This document shows positions 10,206-52,023 of a DNA stretch of 58,605 nt, piece by piece (position 1 is the first letter of the stretch; each line of letters begins with the position of its first letter). Source of the stretch: an uncultured Saprospiraceae bacterium (GTDB lineage Bacteria > Bacteroidota > Bacteroidia > Chitinophagales > Saprospiraceae). The notes under the pieces are model-generated. The model was not told where the DNA came from, searched no databases, and saw nothing but the letters and a program-made list of their open reading frames with translations. The stretch is taken from assembly GCA_964508975.1 (NCBI GenBank), contig CAZDVQ010000024.1, forward strand, positions 1 to 58,605, read 5' to 3'. Both the position numbers and the translations under genes were made by a program.

Positions 10206-10207
10206 AC

Positions 10208-11197: not shown

Positions 11198-11203
11198 AGT
11201 TGA

Positions 11204-13450: not shown

Positions 13451-13454
13451 GTTT

Positions 13455-13630: not shown

Positions 13631-13631
13631 A

Positions 13632-14282: not shown

Positions 14283-14382
14283 GGCTTATATTTTTAGACA
14301 AGCTTAAATTTATTTAGTTAAACACAGATTTTATTGGAAGGTTTTGTGTTTTTTGATTTTTTGCGTTTTAGATTACTATAAA

Positions 14383-14432
14383 AAAGCCAAGTATCCTTTT
14401 TTGAAAAAGGATACTTGGCTTTATGCTCTGCT
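14383..14432 (-). terminator. rho-independent terminator downstream of the large T9SS gene
   Basis: Near-perfect inverted repeat aaaagccaagtatccttttt / aaaaaggatacttggcttt. On the minus strand the hairpin is followed by a TTTTTTAT tract. Confidence 0.6.
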
Positions 14433-14451
14433 CTAATCACTTTGCTCTCTG

Positions 14452-14582
14452 CTCTAAATCATTGGCCTAGCGATGCGTAGGGCGGCCGATGGCCGTACCG
14501 AAGGGGCGAAGCCACGAGGTATGAGCGAATAGCGAACCCGGAGCGTAGCGCCGACGCGCAGCGGCGGAGGCCCCAAAACAAC
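14452..14582. repeat. GC-rich REP/MITE-like repeat
   Basis: Reads gcgatgcgtagggcggccgatggccgtaccgaaggggcgaagcc...gagcgaatagcgaacccggagcg...ggccccaaaacaac. Confidence 0.75.
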
Positions 14583-23821: not shown

Positions 23822-24012
23822 TTATTTGGGCCATTTCAGGGCATGATAAGACAGATGCTGCCCAAAGGGCAGCCCATATCGGTAGCCGCGGGTAAGCAAA
23901 GCGCAACCCGGGGAAATTGAGCAACAACAGAAAACCCGTGGTGGCAAGCCGTTTGGATAGGTACGATACAGGAATCGCCACGGAACGATAGCCGTACCGA
24001 AACCCGGTCGAG
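23822..24012 (-). repeat. about 180-nt structured repeat element (family B), minus-orientation copy
   Basis: Its reverse complement aligns at about 80% with 42497-42700 (ggtttcggtacggctatcgttccgtggcgatt...ccccgggttgcgctttgcttacccgcggctaccgatat...ctgccctttgggcag). A partial inverted third copy lies at 24195-24265. Confidence 0.75.
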
Positions 24013-24194: not shown

Positions 24195-24265
24195 GCGTTA
24201 ATTACCCCGGGTTGCGCTTTGCTTACCCGCGGCTACCAATATTGTCTGCCCTTTGGGCTGATCTG
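24195..24265 (+). repeat. partial copy of the family B structured repeat (3' module)
   Basis: attaccccgggttgcgctttgcttacccgcggctaccaatattgtctgccctttgggc, inverted relative to 23865-23935 and direct relative to 42610-42675. Confidence 0.7.
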
Positions 24266-26782: not shown

Positions 26783-26889
26783 ATTAAAAAAGCCATTTGT
26801 ACAATACAATGTATAATACAAATGGCTTATATAAAAAGTTTACCCGAAAGAGAGCTGTTTTTCGCCGGAAGCTAAAGTCCAAACATACT

Positions 26890-29004: not shown

Positions 29005-29133
29005 GTCGCTTTTAGCAATTATTTAAATTATTAACTATTGATTTTCAATTACTTATCTACAGGGCACACCTATAGAGTGGGGCAAAAATACTATTTTTTA
29101 TGAAATAGCAAAGTAATATCAGTGATTTACTTG

Positions 29134-29712
29134 CTAATCATGCTTTTGCATCGCCTCGTGGGCCAGCTCCAGCTTGTCGTAAAACTCGGCGCCGTAGCGG
29201 CGGGTCAGGGGTTCTTTCAGGAAGCGGAACATGGGTACGCCGAGTTCTTGACCAAAACCACAGGCCGGACTGCAAATGTCCCACTTGTTGTAATTCAAGG
29301 CTTCGTATTCGGGGAGTTTAAGCACGCGGATGGGGTACAAATGGCAAGAAATGGGTTTCTTGAAGTCCACCACACCGTCCTCGTAAGCTTTTTCGATACC
29401 GCATTTGCACATACCTTGTTCATCGATAATCATGTAGGCGCAAGCGGCATTTTTTTGCAGGGGCGCCACGGTTTCATCCACCTCGGGGTCGTAGTACGAG
29501 GTGCCGTATTCCTCGATAGCCTGTTTGCCTTCCTCGGTCAGGTAAGGTTTCACCTTGGGGTAAATCTGCTCCAGGATACTGATTTCGTCCTCTTCCACGG
29601 GCGCGCCCGAGTCGCCTTCCCAGCAACAAATACCCTTGCAGGCATCCAGTTTACACACGAAATGCACGTCGAAAACGTCGTCGCTGATCAGCTTATCGTC
29701 AATGATAATCAT
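29134..29712 (-). CDS. DUF3109-family Cys-rich protein
   Basis: 192 aa with CKLDACKGICCWEG and CKCG...CHLYP cysteine clusters characteristic of Bacteroidota DUF3109. Confidence 0.55.
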   Translation of the reverse strand: MIIIDDKLISDDVFDVHFVCKLDACKGICCWEGDSGAPVEEDEISILEQIYPKVKPYLTEEGKQAIEEYGTSYYDPEVDETVAPLQKNAACAYMIIDEQGMCKCGIEKAYEDGVVDFKKPISCHLYPIRVLKLPEYEALNYNKWDICSPACGFGQELGVPMFRFLKEPLTRRYGAEFYDKLELAHEAMQKHD

Positions 29713-29734
29713 GGATATTGGTATATTTAGCGCA

Positions 29735-29835
29735 AAGATAGCTGAAATTAGGTAAAGGGTAAAATGGGGTAAAAATGGGTGAAAATGGGTGAAAGGGGGC
29801 GAAGATGGGTGAAAGGGGGCTAAAAGCTAAAGATA
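29735..29835. repeat. degenerate short tandem repeat
   Basis: Three or four imperfect units of (a)aatgggtgaaa / gggtgaaagggggc, then gctaaag units. Lies between the DUF3109 start and the next GC-rich repeat. Confidence 0.5.
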
Positions 29836-29889
29836 GCTAAAGGCTAAAAACGCAAAAAATCAAAACCCTGGTCATTTACTCAATTACTC

Positions 29890-30040
29890 GTTTAATCATT
29901 TCATCTTTTTGGGGCGCTGCGCCCGCCGGGGCGGTCGCCGTTACGCTACGGCGCTCGCTATTCGCTCGGCCCGCTACGCGGTCTGGCCCTGCGGGCCACG
30001 CCTCCGCATCACTAGCGCGAGGAAACGGCGGTTTTGTAGC
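29890..30040. repeat. GC-rich REP/MITE-like repeat at the boundary of low-GC island 1
   Basis: tttttggggcgctgcgcccgccggggcgg...cgctacggcgctcgctattcgctcggcccgctacgcgg...ggccacgcctccgcatcac. Confidence 0.8.
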
Positions 30041-30069
30041 TATGCAATATGAACAGGGATTGGTCAATA

Positions 30070-31677
30070 TCATTTATTCCTATTTAGCCTCCTTGCCGAA
30101 AGTTTCTTCCAAATACTATCTGCAAGTTTTATTTCTTTATCGGTAAAGCCATATCCGTCTTTTAGAATTTGCTTATTGGTGATTTTTAAAATTTCATCAA
30201 TGCTCTTTTTCTCTCGCATCATTTTATCAATGGTGGCAAGTAAATCTGCATTGTCGGTTTGGTAGGGAAGTAGTATTTTTTCTGCTTCACTTGGCATTAG
30301 TTCTAAAACACCACCGCCATAACTACGCCCAACAATTTCTGAAAACGCCAACGATAATGAATTGTAAAAACTGGCTATGAAAGCGTTTTTGTCCGTGTCT
30401 TTTTTCATAAATACACGGTGCATTGTGTCGGTTGTATATGCGTTTGCCGAATTCAGGATTAAACGGGGATAAAGATTGTTTCTACGGATAAACAAAGCAT
30501 CTGAAAGTTTGATGGAAGGAATGACAAACCAATCATCACGAATGCCTGTTTTGTAACCTTTGTTTATCCCCATTGATTCGCCCAAATGAATGTATGAGTT
30601 AGCTCCTTTGTGCCCATTGATTTTTTCTTTGGCTGGGAATACTAATAAATGGGCTTTTGCTTTGGTTTGCCTGTTTAGTTTCCAATCCTTTTCCGTAAAA
30701 ATTACGCTATTGACCTGAACACTTCTGCCAACCATTGGCTTTGCGTATTCTTTCAAATCGTAAGCTTCTACAACAGGCAAAGGAACGGTGAAGTAGTCAT
30801 TTGCACCTGTAGTGATACCAACTTCTACACTTGCGTAATTTCCTATTGTCGGAACTTTTCGTTTCCTGGCAATTTGTTCCAAAAAGTCAATTTCTTCTTG
30901 CTCTAAAAAGTAATAAGTCCATTTATTGGATTTGAAATCAATCTTTTTTGTCGGGCTTTTAAGTCGGGTTACATCCAAGCTTTCAAGGTCAGAAGCATCT
31001 TTTAATTCAAGGTGTTCAATTAAATGTGAATCGCTTCCGTTTCTTTCACAAAGCAACAAAACAACTTCTTGCTGAATGTCAGGGAATACCAACTTCTCAA
31101 AAGAAATAATGTTGATTTTATTGTAGAAATGAGCCAAAAATTCACGGAGTTGTTGAGCATAAGAAACCTGTAATAATTCCGCCGGAATTACAAAACCAAT
31201 CTTTCCTTTTTCTTTGAGCAACAAACTTGAACCAACTACAAAAGAAACCCATGCATTGGTCAACTTTGAATATTTTAGTTTAGCTCGATTGAAAACTTTA
31301 ATAGCTTCATTTTGCTGTTCTGCTTGAAAATATTGGTAACGAATGTAAGGCGGATTGCCTACCACTAAGTCAAATTTTTGTGTGGTTTCATTGCAATACA
31401 AATGAAAATCTGCATTAATTACAGTCTTGTTATCAATTTCAATTCTTTCCGCTTTTTCAGCTTCTACATCATCGAATTCAATAGCGGTTAGTGACTTGAA
31501 TTTATGTTTGTTATATTTAATTTGTTCAATAAAGACGCCATCACCACAACTTGGCTCTAAAATTTCATAATCGGAACTTCCATTGATACCCCATTTTAGA
31601 ATGAATGCAGCAATTGGCTCAGGTGTGTAAAATCCACCTCTCAATTTCTCGGCTGTCGCGTTTTTAATTAGCTTCAT
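30070..31677 (-). CDS. N6-adenine DNA methyltransferase (gamma-class), second methyltransferase of an Eco57I-like system
   Basis: 535 aa with motif I EPSCGDGVF and motif IV GNPPYIRYQ. Overlaps the upstream R-M fusion gene by 14 nt. Low GC. Confidence 0.85.
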   Translation of the reverse strand: MKLIKNATAEKLRGGFYTPEPIAAFILKWGINGSSDYEILEPSCGDGVFIEQIKYNKHKFKSLTAIEFDDVEAEKAERIEIDNKTVINADFHLYCNETTQKFDLVVGNPPYIRYQYFQAEQQNEAIKVFNRAKLKYSKLTNAWVSFVVGSSLLLKEKGKIGFVIPAELLQVSYAQQLREFLAHFYNKINIISFEKLVFPDIQQEVVLLLCERNGSDSHLIEHLELKDASDLESLDVTRLKSPTKKIDFKSNKWTYYFLEQEEIDFLEQIARKRKVPTIGNYASVEVGITTGANDYFTVPLPVVEAYDLKEYAKPMVGRSVQVNSVIFTEKDWKLNRQTKAKAHLLVFPAKEKINGHKGANSYIHLGESMGINKGYKTGIRDDWFVIPSIKLSDALFIRRNNLYPRLILNSANAYTTDTMHRVFMKKDTDKNAFIASFYNSLSLAFSEIVGRSYGGGVLELMPSEAEKILLPYQTDNADLLATIDKMMREKKSIDEILKITNKQILKDGYGFTDKEIKLADSIWKKLSARRLNRNK

Positions 31678-34651
31678 ACAACTCTTTGATTAATGGGATT
31701 AATGAGTCTTCAATACCTAAATCGTATAATTTAGCTAATAGCTTTTCTAAATCGGCCTTTACAGTAACGAACTGTCTACGTAGTGGAGTTAATGCTCTTA
31801 TGTTTCCTGCGTTAGCATCTATTTGGTCATAAATACTGATTAATTCTTTTTGGATTTCTACAATTTTGTCGTGTAGTGCATTTTGATTAGTATCAGAAAA
31901 GTCAATCTTACGAATTGGTAGATTTTTCAAAACCTTTGTTCCTCTTGCTATATAACCACCTCTGAAAACTTCACCATACAAAGCACTTAACCATTCCAAG
32001 TATTTAGAGTTGAGAATGGCTTGAATGTAGTAAATGGAGTAATCAGAAGTTGCTGGAATTGCAACTACACAATAACCTGCTGTCCCACCTGACGAAATCA
32101 AAGTTCCATGAACATCAATTGCGTATTTGTCACCAACGGAGAGAACGCCAACAATAATTTTTGAAGGTAGTCCGCAACTATCCAAACTTTGATGTCTACC
32201 GTATCTGTGCCATTCATTTTTTGTTTTTGGCTCTGGTTTTATATCTCGTTTTGAATTATTTAAAATGGCTTTATGCTTTTGCAAATAGTCATAAGCTAAA
32301 GGAAACTTCTTCCGAATTGTTGTTAGAGGAATGATATCAACCCCTGTTTTTGTTGTCAAATAAGGATAAATTACCCTGGCATTCGGTTTGAAAGTTCTGT
32401 AAGTATATAAATTATCTTCGCCTGAAGAAGTTTGAAAATATGGTTTTGTTAATTCTTTTTCAATTTTATAATTAATGCCTTTCTTTGTGAAATAAAAATG
32501 CTTCTTATCCTCTTTGTTTGGCGTGAAAATGTAAACTTCATTTGCACTGGTCTGAATACCATTGAAAATATTGTCGCTTCCAACCAAATCGTTAAGTTTT
32601 ATACTTTGAGAAATAATTTTATTGTAAGTGTTTGTTAATTCGGGTGGAACTAAAACCCAAACTTCACTATCCAATTCATCTGTTTTCTTTGAACCGTATT
32701 TTGCTGCTTCTGGTTCTCTAACTTTCCAACTTTTCAGGCTTCTTACTTCCGCATATCGGAAATTTTTTTGTGGCTTCTTACTCAGAATCAATAAGCAAGT
32801 GTAGGTTGATTTGTCCGCAAAAACTTGATTTGCACCAAATGAAACGATTGAATGTAAATACTCTTTGTCTGCGAGTAATTCACGAAGTTTTTTACCTGCA
32901 CCAACTTTTGTAAATTTGCTTGGAACGATATAACCTAAAATTCCGTCATCATTTAATAAGTTTATTCCTTGCTCAAGGAAAAGAAAGTATTTATCAAACT
33001 GCTTATAAGCCGAATCGTAATTGGTTTTGTAAAGTGGCAATTCAAGCGGAGTAATGTTTTTCATATCCTCCGATTTCATGTAAGGCGGATTGCCTACAAT
33101 GACATCAAAGCGAAGTTTTGAAAAATCAAACGGATTGATAATTACCTGATCTTTCTTGTTTGTTACTTGTTTCGGATTCAATAAACTGTTTCCGAAAAAA
33201 ATACTTTCTGAAAGGTCGGGTAAAACAGGTTTTGTCTTGTTGGTCGAATTTACATCTTCACCTTCAAGCAATTTGAGAAGTAAACCAAATTTTGTGGTTT
33301 CAACTGCATTATAATCTTTATCAACGCCATAGATACAGTTCAATAGAAGTTGATGCTTAATTTCAAACGGCAGTTTGAACGTGTTGATATTGGTTTGAAT
33401 GAGTTTAGATTTGTCGTTTTTTAGATAGTTATCAATCAAAATATCATTTAGCAACTGAAACAATTCCAATAAAAACGCTCCAGAACCACACGAAATATCA
33501 GCGAATTTTAGATTAAGAATTTCCTTGACTGTTTTCCCTTCGCATCTATTCAAAACTGTATTTCGTAAAATATCGTTTATAATGAAAGTCGGTGTAGTGA
33601 TAATATCACGGTCAACACTCTCCGGTTTCTTCACCAAAACAACAGAATCACTTTGAACGGTCAATTTTTCAGAAAGGAAAATTTCATAAATGCTTCCTAG
33701 TACATCAGAAGAAAAAACGCTGAATGAATAGGGGCTTTCAGGATAATACAATTGCTTGATGATAGCCCAAAATACCGAACTGATATTTTCTACAATCTTG
33801 TCTTTCAGCAATTGGTCAAAAAGTCCTGAATTATAGTGTTTATCTGCTTGTTCAAATTTCTTTATGAGTGCTTTGAAGTCGTTTGCGTTGGCAAATTTTA
33901 AAAGTGTTTGATAATCTTCTAAATTCCTGTCCTCACAAACACGCAGAAATAAGACCCTGTTCAAATAACTTTGAACAATATCATTAAGTTGTTGCTCGCC
34001 AATTTTGGGGTCGTGTTTGTAAATTTCAGCACCTAAAGCTTTTCTCCAATCATTAATTTGGTTTAGAAATAAGTTGTCAATCGAGTATTGATTGATTTTG
34101 CTTTCTATTTCTTTCCACTCCGTTTCAAATGCGCCTGAATAAACCGATTCCTTACCTAAAAGCTGTTTGATTTCCTCAAACTTGCTTTCAAATTCTGTAT
34201 AATGGTATTTTTTTACAAGTGCCTTTGCATTGTTGTCGTCCTTTTCAACTTTTACCGAAGTGTCGTAAATAATTAAGTATTCAAAATTTGAGAGAACAGA
34301 AATTTTCAATTTGGCTGTGAATCCGTATCGTCTTACTTGTTTTGCTGTGTCGTTGTTTGATTCAATAGAAACACAAGGTTTCTTGGCTTCCAAAAAGAAT
34401 TTTCTTTCAGAAAAAAGTCGGAAAGTATAGTCAGGTTTTTTTGAATGTTCAGAAGCGCTTGCCTTTAGTGCTTCTTCCAGAATTACTTCTCTTTCGTTGG
34501 TCGGTTTTCCTGCATTGTTTTTAATATCCCAACCAAGCAACTCGAAAAAAGGGTCTAAGAAATCACTGCGAAGCAGTGTTTCATTATACTTGCTTGTCAA
34601 GTAATAAGCCCTGTCGGCTGAATATTTTTCTATGAGTTGCTTAATTGTCAT
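31664..34651 (-). CDS. Type IIG restriction-modification enzyme (N-terminal PD-ExK nuclease, gamma-class m6A methyltransferase and target-recognition domain), Eco57I-like
   Basis: 995 aa. N-terminal nuclease motif KKPDYTFRLF...FFLEAKK (PD...ExK). Methyltransferase motif I DISCGSGAFLLE and motif IV VIVGNPPYMKSED, then a long C-terminal target-recognition region. The 995 + 535 aa pairing mirrors Eco57I as I recall it (997-aa R-M fusion plus 544-aa M.Eco57I). Confidence 0.85.
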   Translation of the reverse strand: MTIKQLIEKYSADRAYYLTSKYNETLLRSDFLDPFFELLGWDIKNNAGKPTNEREVILEEALKASASEHSKKPDYTFRLFSERKFFLEAKKPCVSIESNNDTAKQVRRYGFTAKLKISVLSNFEYLIIYDTSVKVEKDDNNAKALVKKYHYTEFESKFEEIKQLLGKESVYSGAFETEWKEIESKINQYSIDNLFLNQINDWRKALGAEIYKHDPKIGEQQLNDIVQSYLNRVLFLRVCEDRNLEDYQTLLKFANANDFKALIKKFEQADKHYNSGLFDQLLKDKIVENISSVFWAIIKQLYYPESPYSFSVFSSDVLGSIYEIFLSEKLTVQSDSVVLVKKPESVDRDIITTPTFIINDILRNTVLNRCEGKTVKEILNLKFADISCGSGAFLLELFQLLNDILIDNYLKNDKSKLIQTNINTFKLPFEIKHQLLLNCIYGVDKDYNAVETTKFGLLLKLLEGEDVNSTNKTKPVLPDLSESIFFGNSLLNPKQVTNKKDQVIINPFDFSKLRFDVIVGNPPYMKSEDMKNITPLELPLYKTNYDSAYKQFDKYFLFLEQGINLLNDDGILGYIVPSKFTKVGAGKKLRELLADKEYLHSIVSFGANQVFADKSTYTCLLILSKKPQKNFRYAEVRSLKSWKVREPEAAKYGSKKTDELDSEVWVLVPPELTNTYNKIISQSIKLNDLVGSDNIFNGIQTSANEVYIFTPNKEDKKHFYFTKKGINYKIEKELTKPYFQTSSGEDNLYTYRTFKPNARVIYPYLTTKTGVDIIPLTTIRKKFPLAYDYLQKHKAILNNSKRDIKPEPKTKNEWHRYGRHQSLDSCGLPSKIIVGVLSVGDKYAIDVHGTLISSGGTAGYCVVAIPATSDYSIYYIQAILNSKYLEWLSALYGEVFRGGYIARGTKVLKNLPIRKIDFSDTNQNALHDKIVEIQKELISIYDQIDANAGNIRALTPLRRQFVTVKADLEKLLAKLYDLGIEDSLIPLIKELYEAN

Positions 34652-34974
34652 TTCTTCTTATTGGCTTTAATGTATTTGGCTCTTTCCTCTGCTACTTTCA
34701 GAGCTTTTATTCCTAAATCTTCGTTTTGAATTTCATACAAAATCTTGTCGCTTAGGAATGAAACTAAAAGGTCATCTGCATCATAGTTGTATATGTTCGC
34801 AAGTTTCAGAACTACTTCTTTTGTAATTCTTCGTTCCCCTCGTTCCATCTTGCTCAAAATAGCAACATCAATGTCGAGCAAGGCAGCAACTTTTCTTAGA
34901 GGAAGTTCCTTTTCTTCTCGTATGTGTCTTAACTTTTCGCCTATTGTTTCCGTTGACATAACCTGTGTTGACAT
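34648..34974 (-). CDS. XRE-family HTH transcriptional regulator, putative R-M controller (C) protein
   Basis: 108 aa with HTH EKLRHIREEKELPLRKVAALLDIDVAILSKMERGER. Its stop overlaps the R-M gene start (ATGA). Confidence 0.7.
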   Translation of the reverse strand: MSTQVMSTETIGEKLRHIREEKELPLRKVAALLDIDVAILSKMERGERRITKEVVLKLANIYNYDADDLLVSFLSDKILYEIQNEDLGIKALKVAEERAKYIKANKKK

Positions 34975-34990
34975 AAAGTGTCAAAATTAG
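34950..34990 (-). promoter_or_regulatory. putative controller-protein operator overlapping the HTH gene start
   Basis: Direct 10-bp repeat GTTGACATAA at 34952-34961 and 34967-34976, each covering one of the two in-frame ATGs (MSTQVMSTE). Palindrome TTGACAtaaagTGTCAA at 34968-34984. Confidence 0.4.
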
Positions 34991-35129
34991 AATATATTTT
35001 TGATTCGTTCCCATTTAATTTAATTTTTTTTAAACATCCTTGTCAATCGTTGGAAAATTGGCTCTTATGCAAATCTTAGGTTATTGGTTGGTTTGAGAAG
35101 TTTTGTAAATGTGTCACCAAATGCAATGG

Positions 35130-37445
35130 CTAATATTTCGATTGTTTTAAAAAGTCTTTTAGTTTAATCGTCGTTATGCCAAAACCCTTGCATTTAAGCT
35201 GTATGCCATTGTCTGATGTCAACATAATAGGGTTTTCTTTTTTGTATTTAAGTGCAACTGTCAAAATAAAATTATCTGGCGATTTTTTGTCAAAGTCACT
35301 TGGCAACAAAGTCAGGTCGGCTATATCCATTTTGATATTCCGTTTGTCAAAACTGTCGTTGATTTGTTTGATTGCTTTTTGAACATTTTGTTTTTGTTGT
35401 TCTGTTTGCAGCGTTACTTTCAGTTTGTCCAACTCGTCAATGACTTTTGCAGATAAGACTATTTTATACTGTTTGTCAATTTTTGAAATTATGTCGGGCT
35501 GGTCAACAAATACGTTAGTGTCAATAATATAAATATTTTCCCTCCCATTAACGATTTCTTTCTTAGGCTTTTCAAATTGGGAAAGGTCTATTTTGCCAAG
35601 AACCTTTAATCCTGTTTGACTTTCTAATTTTTCTTCATCCTCAGGTGTATTTGATTCTGTCGTTTTGCTTTCAATTAGTTTTTTTTCAGTGGTATAATAA
35701 AACGAATATTCTTCATTTAATTTTTCAAGATAAGTTTTAACATATTTATTTAATTGAAAATCGGAACTGATAATATCCTTGTCTGCAATTATGATTGTAT
35801 GACGTTTTGAACGGCTTGTCGCAACATTGAACAAACGCTTTTCTAATGAATGATTGTAGCCTGAATTTGGAATTACCAAAATGGTTACGTCTGTGGTAAG
35901 ACCTTGTATTCTTGCTACTGTTTCAATCAATAAATTTTCATGGTTGTCAATTGATCCGTAAATGCTTTTTTGTAATGCCTTTACTGTCTCAATGTAATTG
36001 CTTAAAACAGAGATGTGCAATTTTTCTTCGACAGTCAGTAGATGAGTAACTAACAGCTTTGCTATTGCCGATGCGTTTACAGGCTTTTTACTTCCAACTT
36101 CCAAATCTGTTTTAATAAGCGTTGAACCGCCCTCCGGATTGAAAAATACGTTCACTTCATTAGTCATTTCAGGAAATGAAAGTCGTATGTCTGATTTTGA
36201 TTTTGATTTTAAACTGTTATTGTAGAACAATCCTGTGTAATAAGAACCTCTGTTTGGCAAACGATATGTTTCTGTAAGTTGATAAATCGGAACAGCAGAA
36301 GTATCTGCAAGAGCTTTCAATCCCTCCACTAAAATCTCATAATTCTTTTTACCTACTTTATCATCACTGATTGCAATAACTGGAGGCAACTGCATTGTGT
36401 CACCAATCCAAATATTTTTCTGCCCTAAAAGTTTTGCTGCACCAAACATTGCAAGTAACGCCTGGCTTGCTTCGTCAACTAATACATAGTCAAAAGGCGG
36501 TGTATTCGCAATCTTAGTTGCTTCGGTGCTTGCTATAAAAAAGGTGGATAAAACTAACTTGCCTGGTTGTGGATTTATATCCTTTGTCGGTTGTAATCTT
36601 GGAATTTCTTTGGCTTCATCTGTTGATATTTTGGTTTTAAAAACTTTACCCTCATCTAGAATAGTTGCTAATGCTGGTTTTTCAACGACTTCAATTAACG
36701 CTCTATTTGTAAGCGATGTAACTAAAACGGATTTTCCTTGCTCACATAAAAGTTTACAGATTTCAGCTATTTGATAGGTTTTTCCTGTGCCAGGAGGTCC
36801 TATCAAAACAACGTTATCGGATAATGTTAATTGATTTAATATGAAATTTGGTATATCATTTTTTTCATCAAGTAATGAAGGTTCCCCATTGGTTTTTAAA
36901 AAGTCTTGGTCTAAAATTGAACTTACTGCTTCAGAGTAGTTATTCTTAACTATTTTTTGTAAATTCTCTATATACCCATAGGGTGGGACATTCGGGCCTA
37001 AAAGCAATATAATTTTTTCCGCTTTTGAAATATTTACCGAAAAATCCAATTCAACACCACGAAAACCTGCGATGTAAAAGTCTTTATCAAGATTCCCGTC
37101 CTTGTCTTTTGACGGAGCTTGCCAAACGCAAACAGTTTCAGTAAAATTTCCTTTTTCTTTTATTAAGTCGCCATACGTTTTCTTACCCCAATTTCTGTAA
37201 TCTCTCAACTCTTTTGGAACAGTAAAACAATACAAATACTCGCCTTTGCGCGGTAAGCCACGTTTAGTTGAGAATTTTAAGATCATTTCTCCGTCTTTGA
37301 AAGTCAAAAATTGAGCAACAAAAAGCTCTTCCCTTTCTTGAAGCAAAAACGTAGCGGAAGTATTTAACTTTTGGTTAAATGCTTTCGTTTGTGCTTGAAG
37401 TTCTTCCTCAAGAAAGTTGCAGTGTTCTTGTCTAGTATATTTCAT
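35130..37445 (-). CDS. Upf1/DNA2-like SF1 helicase fused to a C-terminal PIN-domain nuclease (candidate defence effector)
   Basis: 771 aa. Walker A LIGPPGTGKTYQ, motif II DYVLVDEASQ, arginine finger/motif VI NVATSRSKRHTIII. C-terminal roughly 150 aa is a PIN fold with acidic residues in IYIIDTNVFVD, IDELDKL and TSDNG. The ATG at 37445 directly abuts the TAA of the upstream gene. Confidence 0.8.
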   Translation of the reverse strand: MKYTRQEHCNFLEEELQAQTKAFNQKLNTSATFLLQEREELFVAQFLTFKDGEMILKFSTKRGLPRKGEYLYCFTVPKELRDYRNWGKKTYGDLIKEKGNFTETVCVWQAPSKDKDGNLDKDFYIAGFRGVELDFSVNISKAEKIILLLGPNVPPYGYIENLQKIVKNNYSEAVSSILDQDFLKTNGEPSLLDEKNDIPNFILNQLTLSDNVVLIGPPGTGKTYQIAEICKLLCEQGKSVLVTSLTNRALIEVVEKPALATILDEGKVFKTKISTDEAKEIPRLQPTKDINPQPGKLVLSTFFIASTEATKIANTPPFDYVLVDEASQALLAMFGAAKLLGQKNIWIGDTMQLPPVIAISDDKVGKKNYEILVEGLKALADTSAVPIYQLTETYRLPNRGSYYTGLFYNNSLKSKSKSDIRLSFPEMTNEVNVFFNPEGGSTLIKTDLEVGSKKPVNASAIAKLLVTHLLTVEEKLHISVLSNYIETVKALQKSIYGSIDNHENLLIETVARIQGLTTDVTILVIPNSGYNHSLEKRLFNVATSRSKRHTIIIADKDIISSDFQLNKYVKTYLEKLNEEYSFYYTTEKKLIESKTTESNTPEDEEKLESQTGLKVLGKIDLSQFEKPKKEIVNGRENIYIIDTNVFVDQPDIISKIDKQYKIVLSAKVIDELDKLKVTLQTEQQKQNVQKAIKQINDSFDKRNIKMDIADLTLLPSDFDKKSPDNFILTVALKYKKENPIMLTSDNGIQLKCKGFGITTIKLKDFLKQSKY

Positions 37446-40400
37446 TTACAATAATTCTTCATCATCACCAGTTAATTCTTCTTCGTTTCTTCTTTCGTCG
37501 AAACGGTAATCGCTTAAATCTTTGGCTATGCTATAATCGCTCGGATTTACACTATTAAAATCAAAGTGGACGTTGCCGAAGTAATGAAGCAATTCGGCAA
37601 ATTTATCTAATCTGTCCTCTACATCAAGATTTTCTGTGCTAAAACTAATAGTAAGCTTATCCTGATTTCTCAATAAATCATATAATTTTAAGCATCCTAA
37701 TTTCCTGTTTCCAAAATGTAACCAAAACATTGAATTTGGTTTCATTAGTTGTATCCATTCGTTTGCTCCAATTTTTAAAGGCTCGTCTTCATATTTGTAA
37801 CTTTTTACAACAATCGGAAATTCAACATTATCTTTATAAACACCGTCAATTGTTGAGAACTTGCCTATTCCTTCAGTAAATTCAAATCCTTCTCTTTCTA
37901 ATTTTTCCTTGACAATTTCTTTTGCTTCTCGGTTAGCTTCTTTTTGGTCGTTTTTAGAAATGTCTGTGCTAAATTCACTTCCTAATGTAGCGTCGCTTGA
38001 TCTTCTTAATTGTGCGTTTTCTTTTTCTAATATTTCTAATTTGTTTTGCCACAATCCGTCAAAATTAAAATCGTTATACTCCTCCAATTCTAATTTTCTT
38101 AGTTCTTTTTTTACATCTGCGTTTTGATTTATGTAAATATTGTTTTTATCATCAACTGCGGTATTGCCTTCAAAAAAAGAATAGAACACATAATCTTCAA
38201 TTTCATTAAGTGAAATTGTTTTAGGTAATTCGCCTTCGTATAGAAAAATAGCAACATTAGAATCCTTTTTCCAATTTTCATAATATGATTCTTCCCACAC
38301 TAATGCGTTCTCTTCTAACTCTTCAACATCCAAATCCTCTTTAATTTCTAAATCTCCATTGTTGGTTCTGTTTTCATTGATAACTTCAACTACTTTCTTA
38401 AATGTTTCAAATTGTTCCGCTGTTTTGAATGTAACTTCGTTTTCTTTAAGCCAAACCAACGAATTGAATAGGTTTAATTCACCTTCGTTAAAACGTGTTT
38501 CTTGTGACAAACGATTGTTTTGAAAATCTTTTATTTTACCGCTTAAATATTTTCGCAATACAACAATGACAGAGCTTTCTGTCCACACGCCCAAGTCAGA
38601 AAGGAAATCAATTTTGGCATCTTCTTCACCAAGCCATTCTATTAGATAATCAGGTAGTAGTTCACTTTCACAAGCGTATTTACTTGGATAAACGGATGTT
38701 GTTGGATTGAATCCTAAAATGTTTTCAGTTTTTACATCATCAATTGTATTCCAATCAATATTTTTGATTGACGTCTTTTTACTTTTCTTATTCCACTGAT
38801 TGAATAAAAACTCTATAAGACTTAGTTTCTGCTCATCTGATAAATTTTCTTCAATGTACGGACAAATGAATTTAGCGTCTTCAAAATAAGGTTCTTTAAT
38901 GAGCAATAAATTATCATTGTCTTCTACTACAACAGGAAAGTCTTTGAATATTTTAGAAATACTTCTGTATTTTTTATGAAGTATTTCGGATTGCTGTATA
39001 AAATCAAAGTCCGTTAAATATTTATCTGTTCCCAGTTCTATTTCTTCTTCATTTACGTTTAGGGCATTAAACTGATTAAAATTTATTTTTTCAATATACA
39101 AACCGTAAAGAAACAAAAATGCTAATTGTTCGGCATTTTCCAATGTTTCAACTTGTTCAGAAAACATTTCATAAATGACGCTTGGTTCAGGTTCTTCACT
39201 TACGCCAAACAAATTCCCAATTCGCTCTTTGTTCAAACCAAGTCCAATAAAATGATTTATCAAACTGCTTAAATAGTCGCTGTTTTCGTAATTGTCTGGG
39301 AGAATTTTAGCAAGACTTATTTCATAATTATCAATTTTAATTTTATCCGTGAAGGGTGGAATTTCAGAAAGTTTTAAATCTTGATTTTCCGTTTCAATGA
39401 CAACTTTTTCTTTGAATTTTAGATAATCGTTTTCTTTCAGTTCACTACAAGCTAAATCTAAAATTTTATACTCGTAATCCTCCCTAGAGTATTCATTTTT
39501 AGAATTAAATCTGAACTCTGATAGTTGTTGTAAAAACTTGTGTTTGGCTTTATATTTTACTATATCCACAAGTATTTCTTTGTGTTCATCTGCATCAACA
39601 AATTCCAAAATCAAACCGTGCAAATCATCGGCTTTTATTATACCTTCTTCGTCCTTGTAGTTTTCCACAAACTCATAAGGAAGAACAAATAAATTGTCAG
39701 CACAATTTTCATCTAAAAATTTTCTTGCTTCCTTATCGGCTGATTGAACCTGATAGGTTTCGCTTGTTTTTTTATCGATTATAAAGTCTTTATTCTCTTT
39801 TTTAATTATGAACTCTTTGAAGAATGATTTTTGATTGTCTTGATAAAGATTAATAAGCGATTTAATTTCCTCTGCTGTTGTTAATTCAGCAATTATATCA
39901 TCTTGATTTTGTTGGTAAATTTCTTTGAAAATATTCCCTGAATCTAAAATCAGGTAGGGGTAGAGTTCAGCAAAGTATTCATCTTGTTTTATTTTGTGTG
40001 CGTTTAACCAACTTGGCGTTTTAATATTACCTATAAGTTCGCTTAGTGGTTTTATTTCTGAATTATTATTGCAAAATAATTCTAAGTTTTTTAATGTGCC
40101 TTCAGCAACATTATCAAACTTTGTTGTTTCGTTAATAAAACTGAGAAATAAAGTTTTCTTTTCTTTGGCTGACAAGGTGTTAGTTTTGCATTTTTCAGCA
40201 ATATAAGTGTACATCTGTTTTTCGTCAGGCATTATTTCAATACAAGAAAAAATGTTTGGATATTCAGAAGTAGTAATTTCAGATACAATGATTCCAATTT
40301 TGTCAAGCTCTTCTACGATGCCTATTGTTTTTTGTATTTTGAAAAAAACATTAGCAAAACCATAACTAGCGATAGTTCTATTTTGTGAGATTTGTTTTTT

Positions 40401-42128
40401 TACTATTTCATTGAACGAATAGAACTCGTCATTGGAAAATTTAAAAAGTTTGATTTGAGAAAGTTTCTCTTTAGTTTCCTTGCGCAAATAACTTTCTTCT
40501 AATTCATCTAAAAATGATTCATAAGTTTTTTTATCACAAGTAGCAATCCAATTATTTATACTTACCAGATTGGCATTTTCTACAATATCTCTGATGTCCC
40601 ATTCTTTAAGGCCCAATTTTTCTGTTTTGGTTGCTTCGTTAATCAACAATTTATCTACCTCACTATCCCACTCAAACCATTGAATATGGTTCAATCCTAA
40701 TTCCGATAAGTTTATAGAGAGTTTGAGCTTATTAATTTTTACGTTTTGAGCGTTGTCAGAAAAACCAATTTTGGTTGGTATATTTTCAGATAGGTATTGA
40801 TGAATGAAATTTGAAAAACTATTACTTATATGAGGCTTGTTTTTGGGGTCTTTCGACAGTAGAAAGTTAGAGTACAAAGACAAAAACAAATTACGGTTAT
40901 TTTCTTTCTGTATATCTGAATACTTAATTACGTTTTGTGCAATTAAGGGCAAAAGCTTTTCGTTGATTTGAGAATTAGCTTGAAGTTTACGCCTGTCATT
41001 ATTCATGTCAAAGGCATTGCAATGCAACAAAAAACTAAAACCATTCTTTTCTTCGTCCATAGAAAAGAACGTGTAAAGATTTGGTGCTAATTCATTTTGT
41101 AAATCAACAGCCTTTTTGTAATCATGATAAAATGCAAATGTGAATTTTATGTCCCGATTTTTATTTTTTGGATTTATGTCTTTGAATTCATTACTGCCAA
41201 TAGGAAAAGAATCTGAATAATCCAAAACAGCTTTTGCTTTGATTTCTTCGTCATTGATGTATATTTTTTGCAAGCTGTTCAAAAATTTGAAAGAATATGA
41301 CAATCCACTTTTAATTTTATCGATACCCTCATCAAGAAATTTGCTTTTACCCTTACCTAGTTTGAGAAAGAAGATTGAGCCGCTTTTTAAATTGTTTGTT
41401 TCTTTCAGATTTACGTTTTGCAGTGAATGTTTTAAAAATGTCCTCATTTCGGACAATTCGTTTTTTGAAAACCTTATGCCTTCTGTATCGTAGTTTTGCA
41501 ATTTTAATTTTTCGTCCAAATGAGAAGGAAAACAAGTGTAAAGCAATTTTATAAGCCAAGGATTTTCGCTATCCTTTGTTACGTCGAAGCCTACTTTGAT
41601 TTCATCTTCCTTTAGAAATGCATCTAATTGAAAAAATTTATTCCAGCTAAAAATGATTGGCCCTGCATAATCGTTTATTATAGCTTCTCTTCCATCATCA
41701 GCACCAACTAATCTGTGTAAAATTTTGAAGCCAATACCAAATGTGCCAATATCTTCTCCATCTTTGTAGTTGCCAGCAACATTGATGATTGCGGACATGT
41801 CACGGTCTGAAAAATAATTCCCATTGTTTATGCAGAGTAAATAGTCCTCATTGTAGCTCACGCTAAAAAAAGACGATTTACAATCGTCAGCGTTTTGAAT
41901 AAGTTCATATATGGCTTGGTCGTCTGCGGCTACGTTTAAAGCAATTGTTCCTAGTAGTTTTCCTAAATCTTCCCTATTACCATAAATCAGTTTTGAAAAT
42001 CCAGTTTCTCTACGTTTTCTGTCGGGATGTAATGAACCCACAAAGTTGAGGTCTATATAACCACTTTCTCTCGCAACTTCTTCTTTGTAGAATCTACGAA
42101 AATAAAAAGCATTTCTTGTGTATAACAT
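37446..42128 (-). CDS. giant sacsin/Hsp90-like GHKL ATPase with C-terminal DUF3883/PD-(D/E)xK-like domain (candidate defence protein)
   Basis: The ORF track starts on TTG at 42197; the first ATG is at 42128 (MLYTRNAF). GHKL N-box AIYELIQNADDC and G2 box GTFGIGFKILHR. About 1200 aa of low-GC helical middle region. The C-terminal segment GFEFTEGIGKFSTIDGVYKDNVEFPIVVKSYKY fits a DUF3883/restriction-endonuclease-like D...E.K core. Confidence 0.8.
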   Translation of the reverse strand: MLYTRNAFYFRRFYKEEVARESGYIDLNFVGSLHPDRKRRETGFSKLIYGNREDLGKLLGTIALNVAADDQAIYELIQNADDCKSSFFSVSYNEDYLLCINNGNYFSDRDMSAIINVAGNYKDGEDIGTFGIGFKILHRLVGADDGREAIINDYAGPIIFSWNKFFQLDAFLKEDEIKVGFDVTKDSENPWLIKLLYTCFPSHLDEKLKLQNYDTEGIRFSKNELSEMRTFLKHSLQNVNLKETNNLKSGSIFFLKLGKGKSKFLDEGIDKIKSGLSYSFKFLNSLQKIYINDEEIKAKAVLDYSDSFPIGSNEFKDINPKNKNRDIKFTFAFYHDYKKAVDLQNELAPNLYTFFSMDEEKNGFSFLLHCNAFDMNNDRRKLQANSQINEKLLPLIAQNVIKYSDIQKENNRNLFLSLYSNFLLSKDPKNKPHISNSFSNFIHQYLSENIPTKIGFSDNAQNVKINKLKLSINLSELGLNHIQWFEWDSEVDKLLINEATKTEKLGLKEWDIRDIVENANLVSINNWIATCDKKTYESFLDELEESYLRKETKEKLSQIKLFKFSNDEFYSFNEIVKKQISQNRTIASYGFANVFFKIQKTIGIVEELDKIGIIVSEITTSEYPNIFSCIEIMPDEKQMYTYIAEKCKTNTLSAKEKKTLFLSFINETTKFDNVAEGTLKNLELFCNNNSEIKPLSELIGNIKTPSWLNAHKIKQDEYFAELYPYLILDSGNIFKEIYQQNQDDIIAELTTAEEIKSLINLYQDNQKSFFKEFIIKKENKDFIIDKKTSETYQVQSADKEARKFLDENCADNLFVLPYEFVENYKDEEGIIKADDLHGLILEFVDADEHKEILVDIVKYKAKHKFLQQLSEFRFNSKNEYSREDYEYKILDLACSELKENDYLKFKEKVVIETENQDLKLSEIPPFTDKIKIDNYEISLAKILPDNYENSDYLSSLINHFIGLGLNKERIGNLFGVSEEPEPSVIYEMFSEQVETLENAEQLAFLFLYGLYIEKINFNQFNALNVNEEEIELGTDKYLTDFDFIQQSEILHKKYRSISKIFKDFPVVVEDNDNLLLIKEPYFEDAKFICPYIEENLSDEQKLSLIEFLFNQWNKKSKKTSIKNIDWNTIDDVKTENILGFNPTTSVYPSKYACESELLPDYLIEWLGEEDAKIDFLSDLGVWTESSVIVVLRKYLSGKIKDFQNNRLSQETRFNEGELNLFNSLVWLKENEVTFKTAEQFETFKKVVEVINENRTNNGDLEIKEDLDVEELEENALVWEESYYENWKKDSNVAIFLYEGELPKTISLNEIEDYVFYSFFEGNTAVDDKNNIYINQNADVKKELRKLELEEYNDFNFDGLWQNKLEILEKENAQLRRSSDATLGSEFSTDISKNDQKEANREAKEIVKEKLEREGFEFTEGIGKFSTIDGVYKDNVEFPIVVKSYKYEDEPLKIGANEWIQLMKPNSMFWLHFGNRKLGCLKLYDLLRNQDKLTISFSTENLDVEDRLDKFAELLHYFGNVHFDFNSVNPSDYSIAKDLSDYRFDERRNEEELTGDDEELL

Positions 42129-42496
42129 TATATTTTTATTTTTTGGAATTGATGATGTGTCCGCAATGCGGTTGTGACACAAGTAAATGTGTTGCAACGG
42201 TGTCGGCTAATGCATTGGTTTTCAAATCTTTTGATTTTGTGAAGTCTTGGCATTTTGTCTGTTGTATTACTGTTTGTTTTTGTTGTGTCGTCTTTTAGCA
42301 TCACAACCAACCTCCCCGCAGCCACAACTCCCCTGGCTTTATAGTGTCACTATTCAGGTTTAATGAATAGAACAAGTAGCTAGTACCCGTGTGTGTTGTG
42401 TTACAACGAATGATAGGTCCTGTGCAAAGGTATTGAAAATATGCTAATCTCAGTAATTTTTATCATCAATTTATAGGGCATTTTACGTGCTTTGGG

Positions 42497-42700
42497 TGCT
42501 TGGTGCTTGGTAAGGCTCGATGGGGTTTCGGTCCGGCTACCGTTCCGTGGCGATTTCTGTATTGGGCATTCTCGTCTGGCTTGCCGCCACGGGGTTTTGG
42601 TTGTTGCTTTAAACCCCGGGTTGCGCTGCGCTTAACCCGCGGCTACCGATATTGCCTGCCCCTTGGGCAGGATTTAGCGCGCAGCACGCAGCGTGAAATT
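42497..42700 (+). repeat. about 180-nt structured repeat element (family B), plus-orientation copy
   Basis: Aligns with the reverse complement of 23822-24012 and contains the hairpin ctgcccc-ttg-ggcag. Lies immediately upstream of a GC-rich repeat, the same composite arrangement as at 23.8-24.4 kb. Confidence 0.75.
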
Positions 42701-42711: not shown

Positions 42712-42848
42712 CAAACCATCGCCAGTACACGATTCGGCTTAGCTGCCTGTAGGGCGCCGCCGCAGGCGGCGGTGCGCGTAGCGCACGGAGCGAATAGCGA
42801 ACCCCGGAAGGGAGCGGCCCGCGCAGCGGGAAAGCCCCAAAAAAGAGC
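42712..42848. repeat. GC-rich REP/MITE-like repeat at the other boundary of island 1
   Basis: ccatcgccagtacacgattcggcttagctgcctgtagggcgccgccgcaggcggcgg...cggagcgaatagcgaaccccggaagg...aaagccccaaaaaag. Confidence 0.8.
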
Positions 42849-43031
42849 ATTCATCCGATAATCTTACACTTTCATATAAATATTTGAACTTTGAACTCAA
42901 TTCTGTTTTAAACTTGTACCCTTAATCCAATACACGGGAATTTTTTCCGTAGTTTTGGAGTTCTCTGATTGTTCTGCCCGGTTTTAAGGCAAAACCCTCT
43001 ACACCTTACAGCTCTTAACTATAAGCACACC

Positions 43032-44453
43032 ATGCGACAAGCGACCCTTATTCTATTTTTGCTCCTTGGCCACTTTGCCCTTCAGGCACAAGAAACCTGG
43101 GATCTCGAAAAATGCATCCGTTATGCCCAGGAAAATAGCCTGCTCATTAAACAAAATGCCATCAACGTTGAAAACAACAAGCTCGACCTTACCCTGGCCA
43201 AACGCTCCCGGCTCCCAACCGCCGATGCTACCCTGAGCCAAAGCCTTAACTTTGGTCGCTCGATTGACCCTACCACCAACACCTTCCAACAACAAACCAT
43301 TTATGCCAACGGCTATGGTATATCTGGTGGTGTACCTATTTATAATGGCGGTCGGATAAACCATAGCATCGACCAAACGGAAGTATCCGTGCGGGCCGCC
43401 GAGGAAGACCTGGCCAACGTGCAAAATAACCTGGCGCTCAACGTGGCACAAGCTTACCTCAATGTGCTGCTGGCCGAAGAAGCTATCCTGGCCCTGCAAG
43501 AACAACAAAAACAAACCGAAAACCAGATGGCCAATACCCGCAAGATGATTGCCGCGGGTACCCTGCCCGCCAATACCATTTTCGACCTGGAAGCGCAACT
43601 GGCCCGCAACGAGCAAAATATCGTTAACGGTCAAAATGCCATCGACCTGGCGTACTTGAGTTTGAAGCAAATCATGAATTTTGACCCCTACACGCCTATA
43701 CTAATCAGTAAGCCCAACATCAACGTGCTCGAAACGGCGGAGGTGATTAGCGCGGAAGCCATTTATAGCTTGGCCGAGCAAAATCAACCCAACATCAGGG
43801 CTAACGAGCTGCGTGAAGAAAGCGCCCGCATTAATGTGGAAGTGGCACAATCAGCCTTGAAGCCTCAAATTAACGGTTTCTACCAGTTTCAAACCAACTA
43901 CTCTAGTCTCGGTAAAGAAGTGACGGGCTTTACGCCAGTTCAACAAAACCTCGGCGATGTTGAAATCCCGAACGTGGGCACATTCCCCTTGCTGATTACA
44001 ACTCAGGCCCCTACCTTGCGCAACACGCCGTATTTCAACCAGCTGGGCGACAACTTCCGCCAGGCCGTTGGGGTATCGTTGAGTGTACCGATATACAATG
44101 GCGATCGGAATAAAATTCAAATTGAACGGGCCAAGCTGGGCGTTGTCTCGGCTGAAATTGCTTCAGAACAATCTAAAGTACAGCTCAAGGCCGATATCAA
44201 CCAAGCGATTGCCAATGCCCGTGCGGCATTAAAACGCTACAACGCCGCCTTGAAAACCGTTAACGCCCTAGAGCAAGCCCTGGGTAATACCCGCAAGCGT
44301 TTTGACGCCGGTGCCGCTAGCGCTTTTGAACTCACCACCGCCGAGAATAGCCTCTTGGTATCTCGTGCTGAATTGATTCAATCCAAGTACGATTACATTT
44401 TCAGGCTTAAAATCCTCGATTTTTACGAAGGAAAACCTATCGTGCTTGAGTAA
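43032..44453 (+). CDS. TolC-family outer-membrane efflux protein
   Basis: The ORF track starts on TTG at 42969; the ATG at 43032 opens a signal peptide (MRQATLILFLLLGHFALQAQ). Two TolC-type coiled-coil/beta-barrel repeats (LDLTLAKRSRLPT... and ...LKADINQAIANARAALKRY). Confidence 0.85.
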   Translation: MRQATLILFLLLGHFALQAQETWDLEKCIRYAQENSLLIKQNAINVENNKLDLTLAKRSRLPTADATLSQSLNFGRSIDPTTNTFQQQTIYANGYGISGGVPIYNGGRINHSIDQTEVSVRAAEEDLANVQNNLALNVAQAYLNVLLAEEAILALQEQQKQTENQMANTRKMIAAGTLPANTIFDLEAQLARNEQNIVNGQNAIDLAYLSLKQIMNFDPYTPILISKPNINVLETAEVISAEAIYSLAEQNQPNIRANELREESARINVEVAQSALKPQINGFYQFQTNYSSLGKEVTGFTPVQQNLGDVEIPNVGTFPLLITTQAPTLRNTPYFNQLGDNFRQAVGVSLSVPIYNGDRNKIQIERAKLGVVSAEIASEQSKVQLKADINQAIANARAALKRYNAALKTVNALEQALGNTRKRFDAGAASAFELTTAENSLLVSRAELIQSKYDYIFRLKILDFYEGKPIVLE

Positions 44454-51035: not shown

Positions 51036-51083
51036 GATGGAGTAATATTAATTATTCGGAATACTAAAATATGTTTCAAAAAA

Positions 51084-51944: not shown

Positions 51945-52023
51945 GATTTGAGATTTAGAAGATTATTAGATTTTTTAGTTTTAAACTGGAATTTACATCA
52001 AGATTTAGCCATGATGATAGTGC

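Follow-up and report, generated by a model that had tools for sequence, protein, structure and literature searches.

A 12.3-kb block of low-GC DNA on a contig from an uncultured Saprospiraceae bacterium (CAZDVQ010000024.1) is very probably a horizontally acquired, composite defense island. We analyzed the whole contig of 58,605 nucleotides (nt), referred to here as the window. The block occupies the intergenic region that separates a DUF3109 gene from a divergently oriented TolC-family efflux operon, and in our reading it comprises at least two cassettes with separate histories, the second of which is a two-gene module of the Tiamat type. The first-pass annotation of this DNA had proposed one horizontally acquired defense island. 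Acquisition of a defense island was borne out by the foreign composition of the block, by a copy of its restriction-modification (R-M) gene pair that is 86.5% nt identical on a phage contig, and by copies of its TmtA and helicase genes that are about 80% nt identical in unrelated neighborhoods. The idea of one unit was not, since the block is a mosaic of at least two independently mobile cassettes. The content had been given as an R-M system, a controller protein, and a helicase/ATPase module. An R-M system (an Eco57I-type IIG enzyme and a methylase), a helix-turn-helix (HTH) gene, and a helicase/ATPase pair are all present, and the last can be refined to a Tiamat-like TmtA protein and a Upf1-like helicase with a PIN nuclease domain (Table 1).

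Composition sets the block apart sharply. The GC content of positions 30070 to 42197 is 33.0% versus 48.1% for the remainder of the window, in agreement with the 30 to 35% and 50% that had been estimated by eye. Sliding-window GC and tetranucleotide analyses, which the annotation had named as a check, showed that composition is not uniform. In 500-nt windows, the GC fraction falls from 0.45-0.51 to 0.28-0.38 between about 30000 and 42250 and returns to 0.48-0.53 past the right edge. Tetranucleotide distance to the background, calculated in 2-kb windows, is 0.50-0.70 in the block and 0.19-0.31 outside it, apart from an islet at about 50.3-52.9 kb. GC content at third codon positions (GC3) is 0.27-0.33 in the five island genes and 0.43-0.67 in 26 of the 29 other open reading frames (ORFs) in the window. 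The five ORFs of at least 100 amino acids (aa) in the block all lie on the minus strand and are closely packed, as had been described, with junctions that consist of two overlaps (14 nt and 4 nt), one zero-gap abutment, and one 155-nt spacer. Six genes had been counted. The sole candidate for a sixth was an ORF at 42128-42325 (41-65 aa), which we dropped because its frame differs between the window and the homologous cassette in L055 (homologous loci are numbered in this way throughout), though the nucleotides are kept.

The TmtA and helicase genes are a near-obligate abutting gene pair that moves as a unit. In nine loci that we fetched, with differing flanking genes, the two genes abut with a gap of 0-3 nt. 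Among these loci are the isolate Aestuariibaculum marinum and variants whose C-terminal half differs, and the pairing persists at TmtA identities as low as 47%. From JGI metagenomes, a profile scan yielded 80 loci, of which 44 were informative, having a closed TmtA-like ORF and at least 1.5 kb of sequence downstream. The helicase, including its N-terminal domain, starts −13 to +12 nt from the downstream end of the TmtA-like gene in 37 of the 44, at TmtA identities of 22-91%, and a PIN domain is present in 20 of the 35 metagenome loci with room for one. Four of the seven exceptions (L117, L119, L120, and L122) are ORFs of about 2300 aa, and a fifth such ORF (L116) fell below the room threshold. 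These five ORFs, of 2276-2316 aa, each have a TmtA-like start, and tblastn detected internal helicase similarity in L116, L117, and L122. L117 is a confirmed TmtA-helicase fusion, in which TmtA profile positions 1-1461 are joined to C-terminal AAA_11 and AAA_12 domains (Pfam and PADLOC).

The TmtA homolog matched PADLOC model PDLC03970 at 1140.9 bits in two stretches and three other TmtA models more weakly. Its N terminus is a sacsin-like GHKL ATPase, its middle is long and helical, and its C-terminal domain appears to adopt a PD-(D/E)XK fold. The N-box (YELIQNADD) and G-box (GIGFK) of the GHKL region are invariant in 15 homologs. In the C-terminal restriction-endonuclease-like fold, the canonical ExK reads VVK in this clade, and the domain may be noncatalytic. 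The C terminus taken in isolation had no Pfam match, and the protein had no match in a PDB sequence search or among PLSDB plasmids. By its sequence, this half of the island belongs to the TmtA family and is best described as a two-gene variant of Tiamat with a dedicated Upf1-like helicase-PIN partner. In another locus (L129, 4579-10920), a 2113-aa TmtA-like protein has an S1 RNA-binding domain at its N terminus.

The partner protein begins with a family-specific N-terminal domain (residues 1-195), followed by the helicase motifs GPPGTGKT (216), DEAS (324), and GDxxQLPP (348) and by all four acidic motifs of the PIN domain: DTN (642), DELD (670), PDN (723), and SDN (744). The nearest solved structures by sequence are IGHMBP2, DNA2, and Upf1. 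RNA is most likely the target, as the Upf1/IGHMBP2-like core, the PIN_4 domain, and the S1 domain of the TmtA-like relative in L129 all suggest. The N-terminal domain had no Pfam match in isolation and just 132 representative matches among 1.84 billion proteins. In full-length matches, which are about 560-600 aa or 735-795 aa long, it is placed N-terminally. The window protein has at least 82% identity to more than 120 helicase-PIN protein clusters, whose source labels include Bacteroidales, Niabella, and Saprospiraceae; no match was found in IMG/VR. PADLOC holds no model for this helicase, the best match being a partial one to MkoA (87.6 bits, residues 296-578), and we found no literature linking a sacsin-like ATPase with a Upf1-like helicase-PIN protein. 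In two of the metagenome loci, the helicase lacks a PIN domain and is followed by a gene with Schlafen/AlbA_2 and HATPase_c_4 domains and then by an HTH homolog (L129, 12595-14265; L139, 11936-13414).

Across the loci, the identity of the TmtA C terminus tracks that of the helicase N-terminal domain (rho 0.64; 0.74 when undetected matches are given a low value). No such tracking with the helicase N-terminal domain is seen for the GHKL N terminus of TmtA (rho 0.31), and the PIN domain has been exchanged irrespective of the helicase core (rho 0.02). Because the loci share phylogeny and the two segments adjoin in the DNA, the covariation is suggestive only. Individual loci differ from the window segment by segment. 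In L083 and L085, the GHKL N-terminal third of TmtA is 37% identical to that of the window, with 65-90% identity over the remainder of TmtA and the helicase, and in L086, L088, L090, and L091, PIN domains 73-90% identical to that of the window sit on helicases whose cores are 37-39% identical.

The pair also has discrete nucleotide boundaries. It is about 80-82% nt identical to copies in at least five unrelated gene neighborhoods, which include positions downstream of two different type III-like R-M operons, a position flanked by SusC/D-family genes on one side and an IS91-family transposase with an integrase on the other, and others elsewhere. The end of homology at 35059 lies inside longer sequence in L072, L081, L082, L086, and L088. 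The end at 42298 lies inside longer sequence in L072. In L055 it falls 50 nt short of the end of the contig, and the opposite end of homology (35060) coincides with a contig end. In the R-M operon contexts, the two ORFs alone are common to the loci (35131-42142). More than 25 contigs with close TmtA homologs are 7.0-7.9 kb long, matching the 7.24-kb cassette. Assemblers yield such unit-length contigs when one sample holds a unit in several contexts, as this pattern suggests.

Each end of the cassette carries an imperfect hairpin with conserved mismatches. The two hairpins share a pair of arms, GCACATTTGC and CAAAAGAGC, whose order is reversed between them. The RNAalifold consensus of the 5′ leader has 13 stem pairs in nine loci, one of which is CG in four loci, GC in four, and UA in one. 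That of the 3′ trailer has 13 pairs in eight loci, two with compensatory changes. Three pairs are broken in each of the two window copies. Conservation of the leader is at the nucleotide level, since the small ORF that overlaps it is in different frames in different loci. In L082 (about 12260-12400), L085 (about 8635-8780), and L088 (about 10480-10620), the 3′ hairpin of the cassette is followed by an imperfect palindrome, about 145 nt long and ending in ATAAC...GTTAT, with DNA fold z scores of −3.45, −0.6, and −2.77, respectively, an arrangement reminiscent of attC sites. A tyrosine recombinase fragment adjoins the cassette in L082, and the IS91-family transposase and integrase adjoin it in L072. 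An attC-like element in the window was rejected, as the flank does not fold (z +0.59); with this flank and no integrase in the window, the TmtA unit was not classed as an integron gene cassette.

Our working model of the module belongs to the main reading. TmtA would act as an ATP-driven sensor and scaffold, and its C-terminal PD-(D/E)XK-fold domain is proposed to dock the private N-terminal domain of the helicase. The Upf1-like helicase would translocate on or unwind single-stranded nucleic acid, most likely RNA, and the PIN domain would degrade it. We also tentatively offer a more far-reaching possibility, which we rate well below even. The Bacteroidota TmtA clade would be an obligate two-component system, absent from the searchable literature, in which a GHKL ATPase docks, by its degenerate nuclease-fold C terminus, a dedicated helicase whose exchangeable PIN domain destroys invader RNA, and the pair would travel as a hairpin-ended 7.2-kb cassette, pointing to site-specific, cassette-type mobility. 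Several points weigh against the working model. What we observed of the module is gene linkage and sequence motifs, from which we infer the mechanistic steps. The covariation of adjacent segments could reflect linkage rather than contact. The predicted structure of the helicase-PIN protein had a pLDDT of 32, its homologs all being at least 82% identical. DNA2 is also among the closest solved helicases, and the target may be DNA rather than RNA. Finally, TmtA may work alone, since a preprint lists Tiamat as a single-gene antiphage system with a PD-(D/E)XK structure (bioRxiv 10.1101/2024.10.26.620412).

That listing also bears on whether TmtA and the helicase-PIN protein are two independent single-gene systems that became neighbors by chance in a defense island. 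All Tiamat-named PADLOC matches in this analysis are to TmtA models, defense genes cluster for reasons besides shared function, and the PIN domain is exchanged without regard to the helicase core. Chance neighbors would nevertheless not be expected to stay within −13 to +12 nt of each other in 37 of 44 loci over so wide a range of TmtA identities, or to be fused, as in L117. The helicase N-terminal domain is, moreover, a tiny family placed N-terminally on helicases of about 560-800 aa, and the blocks of nucleotide homology start and stop around both genes together. We consider independent systems unlikely.

The other half of the island is an R-M cassette with a history of its own. Its methylase had Pfam matches to M_Eco57I_C (1.9e-36), Eco57I (2.4e-16), and N6_Mtase, a full-length PADLOC match to MTase_II (679 bits), and the motifs SCGDG at residue 43 and NPPY at residue 108. 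The larger protein matched PADLOC REase_MTase_IIG over residues 2-992 (1186 bits) and Pfam Eco57I (8.9e-38), HSDR_N, and TaqI_C; its motifs are a nuclease PD(73)...EAK(88-90), SCGSG (387), and NPPY (521). This single polypeptide has the layout of Eco57I-type IIG enzymes, with a PD-(D/E)XK nuclease at the N terminus, a specificity domain, and an N6-adenine methylase of the gamma class (NPPY), and the separate M.Eco57I-like methyltransferase gene overlaps its gene by 14 nt. The nearly identical R-M pair lies at 10001-14582 of an IMG/VR contig (L074, UViG 3300044998_000941), with proteins 91-92% identical to those of the window. We take L074 to be a phage or prophage because it encodes a tape-measure protein, a RecA-like protein, an S24-peptidase-domain protein, and PD-(D/E)XK recombination nucleases; the R-M region had no match among GenBank phages. 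The predicted R-M system, of which the phage contig carries a close copy, adds an ordinary new member to the Eco57I family. If it works as Eco57I does, the stand-alone methylase, together with the methylase half of the fused enzyme, would protect host DNA, and the PD-ExK nuclease at the N terminus of the fused enzyme would cut unmodified incoming DNA at a distance from the site.

Homology to L074 ends 11 nt upstream of the R-M start, which leaves the HTH gene outside. This gene lies upstream of the R-M gene in the same orientation and overlaps its start by 4 nt. A perfect palindrome, TTGACA-N5-TGTCAA, spans the first ATG of the HTH gene, and a copy of TTATGTCAAC lies 15 nt downstream of it. 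The perfect palindrome is the single match in the window; 13 of 100 shuffles yielded at least one match with one mismatch allowed. The HTH gene may be translationally coupled to the R-M gene, and its product probably autoregulates the operon through the palindrome. Homologs with 35-44% identity were found upstream of TmtA (L115), heading other R-M operons (L058), and also after TmtA-helicase-Schlafen clusters that lack R-M genes. Those in L124, L129, and L139 each have upstream repeats of their own, and in L124 the homolog lies downstream of the helicase.

The block is bounded by dispersed host repeats. One family (here called REP; core GAGCGAATAGCG, at most one mismatch) has nine copies in the window versus 0.2 expected, at 330, 6792, 13514, 14523, 22496, 29956, 42788, 54407, and 56331. 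The copies are GC-rich and intergenic, and their alignment defines a common element of about 130 nt with the core GAGCGAAYAGCG and the 3′ end GCCCCAAAA. They have diverged, with matches of 26-42 nt at 88-96% identity. The left copy has its head toward the island and its ...GCCCCAAAAA tail toward DUF3109. The left and right copies are inverted, both heads facing the island, with a 26-nt inverted match between them. Partial copies of the second repeat, family B, lie at 23858-23913, 23966-24005, and 24204-24258 (40-57 nt, 89-92% identical), and family B had no Rfam match. The bounding repeats that had been pointed out are therefore genuine multicopy elements, and the suggestion that they mark a recombination hotspot has no positive evidence. 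Head-to-head (−/+) REP pairs are also found on either side of an iron-dependent repressor gene (13514/14523) and of an unknown 259-aa ORF (54407/56331); three such pairs among eight adjacent pairs is near the chance expectation. REP occupies about one in four intergenic gaps, so a copy on each flank is only mildly unusual. By our own estimate, from nine copies and about 33 intergenic gaps taken as independent, its probability is about 7%.

Few relatives of the host DNA could be found. The closest DUF3109 homolog among 5.8 billion proteins, the contig's own excepted, was 62% aa identical, and a scan of GTDB representatives with the DUF3109 protein gave 53 loci, all at 54% identity or less. No PpiD or TolC gene stood next to DUF3109 in these distant GTDB relatives. 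Judged by these searches, the lineage is essentially unsampled. Exact look-ups of flank proteins matched sample SRR11802613 only. In the Logan assembly of that run, a 12,571-nt contig equals window positions 29992-42562 at 100% identity, with all five genes aboard, and a second is likewise identical to 26866-29963. At its two ends, the island contig includes 49 nt of the left REP and 66 nt of family B. Since it ends inside these repeats, the low-GC DNA is joined to host-specific repeats on both sides.

Insertion at this locus faces objections of its own. Of the usual marks of a genomic island, deviating composition was found, whereas a mobility gene, a tRNA target, and flanking direct repeats were not. 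Matches between the island flanks were short and at chance level, with no target-site duplication; Pfam detected no integrase or transposase domain in the five island proteins; and a tRNA scan found none in the window, at the island or elsewhere. Both Logan contigs stop within the left REP and leave 28 nt unbridged. The placement between DUF3109 and TolC depends on the deposited contig, because both junctions sit in multicopy repeats, where short-read assemblies break. The case for insertion is made by composition and foreign homologs, with no island-free relative for comparison.

An insertion of the whole 12.3 kb as one mobile element, with the inverted REP copies as its ends or as a hotspot, would account for the shared strand and similarly low GC of the genes, for the position of the island exactly between two head-to-head REP copies, and for the presence of all five genes on one contig in a separate Logan assembly. 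The two halves, however, have different relatives. L074 has the R-M pair without the HTH gene or TmtA, and about 20 loci have TmtA and the helicase without this R-M system. With no recombinase gene or direct repeats found, and with REP so common in the window that a head-to-head pair also brackets an ordinary host repressor gene, a single element seems improbable.

We regard as more improbable still an assembly chimera, in which the low-GC block came from another organism or replicon and was joined through the repeats. The positions of the junctions and of the Logan breaks would allow it, and the arrangement was seen in no second genome. The island contig, however, carries its stretches of REP and family B at 100% identity, and all other copies of both families lie in the high-GC part of the window. 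Two independent false joins, both in one intergenic region, would have to be assumed for a chimera, and the divergence of the REP copies makes a unique assembly path through them plausible. That the block is an old resident region with low GC for functional reasons, which the lack of a relative without the block would permit, is hardly credible given its GC3 against that of its neighbors and its 80-86% nt identical copies in a phage and in contigs labeled as other Bacteroidota orders, an identity that misfits vertical descent because the housekeeping-type DUF3109 protein of this lineage is at most 62% identical to anything known.

Table 1. Features of the island and its immediate surroundings, in window coordinates
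Feature	Position	Strand	Basis or remarks
PpiD-like protein gene	26890-29004		Pfam
DUF3109 gene	29134-29712		Pfam
REP, left boundary	29890..30040	-	Dispersed host repeat, 66% GC; core GAGCGAATAGCG at 29956-29967
M.Eco57I-like N6-adenine DNA methyltransferase, 535 aa	30070..31677	-	Pfam and PADLOC
Two-gene R-M cassette common to phage contig	30072..34662	-	86.5% nt identity over 4591 nt
Eco57I-type IIG bifunctional restriction endonuclease/methyltransferase, 995 aa	31664..34651	-	PADLOC and Pfam
XRE-family HTH protein, 108 aa, putative controller or island regulator	34648..34974	-	Pfam HTH_3, 2.1e-11
Candidate operator, perfect palindrome TTGACA-N5-TGTCAA across first ATG of HTH gene	34968..34984	.	
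TmtA and helicase-PIN cassette, 7.24 kb, discrete homology ends	35059..42298	-	Nucleotide homology ends in several loci
3′ trailer imperfect hairpin	35059..35116	-	Arm A GCACATTTGC, loop, arm B GCAAAAGAGC; window copy partly degenerate
Upf1-like superfamily 1 helicase, 771 aa, with C-terminal PIN_4 nuclease	35130..37445	-	Pfam AAA_11, AAA_12, AAA_19, PIN_4 (4.5e-19)
TmtA homolog, 1560 aa from ATG 42128 (ORF open to 42197)	37446..42128	-	PADLOC TmtA
5′ leader imperfect hairpin	42179..42238	-	Arm B TCAAAAGAGC, loop, arm A GCACATTTGC
Family B host repeat, by right boundary	42497..42700	+	Partial copies near 24 kb
REP, right boundary	42712..42848	+	GC-rich; core at 42788-42799
TolC/OEP-family protein gene	42969-44453		Pfam

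Pfam confirmed the DUF3109, PpiD, and TolC genes named earlier as neighbors and identified DUF2480, DUF2400, and Por_Secre_tail genes in the flanks; with DUF3109, these genes indicate a Bacteroidota host. An Rfam scan of the window gave no match. A scan for sigma-70 promoters and terminators gave counts no different from those of shuffled sequence and, being ill suited to Bacteroidota, was not used. About six units of a tandem 10-nt repeat (AATGGGTGAA-like) lie at 29754-29813, in the upstream region of the DUF3109 gene, followed by a 24-nt duplication of the GGCTAAAAGC type at 29818-29865. The second low-GC islet, at 50340-52944, holds three minus-strand ORFs of 231, 286, and 306 aa (GC 0.31-0.36, GC3 0.28-0.34), none of which had a Pfam or PADLOC match. 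It lies directly downstream of an RtcB gene, which its first ORF overlaps by 11 nt.

Low-GC defense islands and Eco57I-like systems are well known, and the island as such and its R-M half are routine. The useful result is the helicase(-PIN) partner of the TmtA clade, a gene that present catalogs of defense systems lack. The TmtA gene in this clade is almost never alone but has a dedicated Upf1-like helicase, often with a PIN domain, that is fused to it in at least one relative, and tools that score TmtA alone may under-describe these loci. The two-component model is concrete in that it names the PIN domain as the effector and the TmtA C terminus with the helicase N-terminal domain as the candidate interface. 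The two-gene homology blocks and shared end hairpins show that large defense modules are shuffled among R-M operons, phages, and chromosomes in Bacteroidota. If the more far-reaching possibility is correct, the TmtA-helicase pair would be a bacterial counterpart of helicase-guided RNA decay, and the hairpin-ended cassette would imply site-specific, cassette-type mobility for large Bacteroidota defense modules.

The two proteins of Eco57I are about 997 and 544 aa long, and the R-M half of the island has the same two-protein layout and similar sizes (995 and 535 aa). In common with Eco57I, it has the Pfam Eco57I and M_Eco57I_C domains, an N-terminal PD-ExK motif, NPPY motifs, and a TaqI_C-like specificity region. 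It differs in the XRE-family HTH gene that heads the operon, which is absent from the near-identical phage copy. This HTH protein had earlier been labeled a controller. As with R-M controller (C) proteins, a small HTH_3 protein is encoded upstream of, in the same orientation as, and overlapping a restriction gene, with a palindrome at its own start. Unlike them, it matched the PADLOC Control_protein model only weakly (21.9 bits) and has a 40-aa C-terminal extension, and its gene lies outside the conserved R-M cassette, being missing from the phage R-M copy, and has homologs without R-M genes. A controller function is plausible from these features; we treat the protein as an island regulator whose target is unproven.

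Mokosh pairs MkoA, a Upf1-like COG1112 helicase, with a PLD nuclease (bioRxiv 10.1101/2022.05.11.491447). The module described here resembles it in having a superfamily 1 Upf1-like helicase and a nuclease with RNA as the suspected target, and its helicase core gives the partial MkoA match. It differs in that its nuclease is PIN rather than PLD and that its partner is a GHKL ATPase, which Mokosh lacks. Pfam found neither the PLD domain that Mokosh includes nor a kinase domain (type I Mokosh has a serine/threonine kinase) in the five island proteins. Our working analogy is with eukaryotic Upf1 and the SMG6 PIN endonuclease of nonsense-mediated decay, in which a PIN endonuclease likewise accompanies a Upf1-family helicase core; the origin of that PIN component in a conflict system has been discussed (PMC5031192). 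In the island, by contrast, helicase and PIN domain are fused in one bacterial polypeptide linked to a GHKL ATPase, and the likeness is at the domain level only.

Tiamat itself is attributed, in a review, to Millman et al. 2022; the 2022 preprint of that discovery paper does not mention it, and we found no mechanistic study of TmtA in the searchable literature. The window protein shares with Tiamat a strong TmtA model match (1141 bits), a GHKL/sacsin-like N terminus, and a putative C-terminal restriction-endonuclease-like fold, and by sequence it falls within the family. It departs from Tiamat in having VVK in place of the canonical ExK in the nuclease fold and, above all, in not being a single-gene system, which is how both the preprint and PADLOC treat Tiamat: a Upf1-like helicase(-PIN) gene, covered by no PADLOC model, abuts it, as a helicase gene does in 37 of the 44 informative metagenome loci, and in at least one relative the two are fused.

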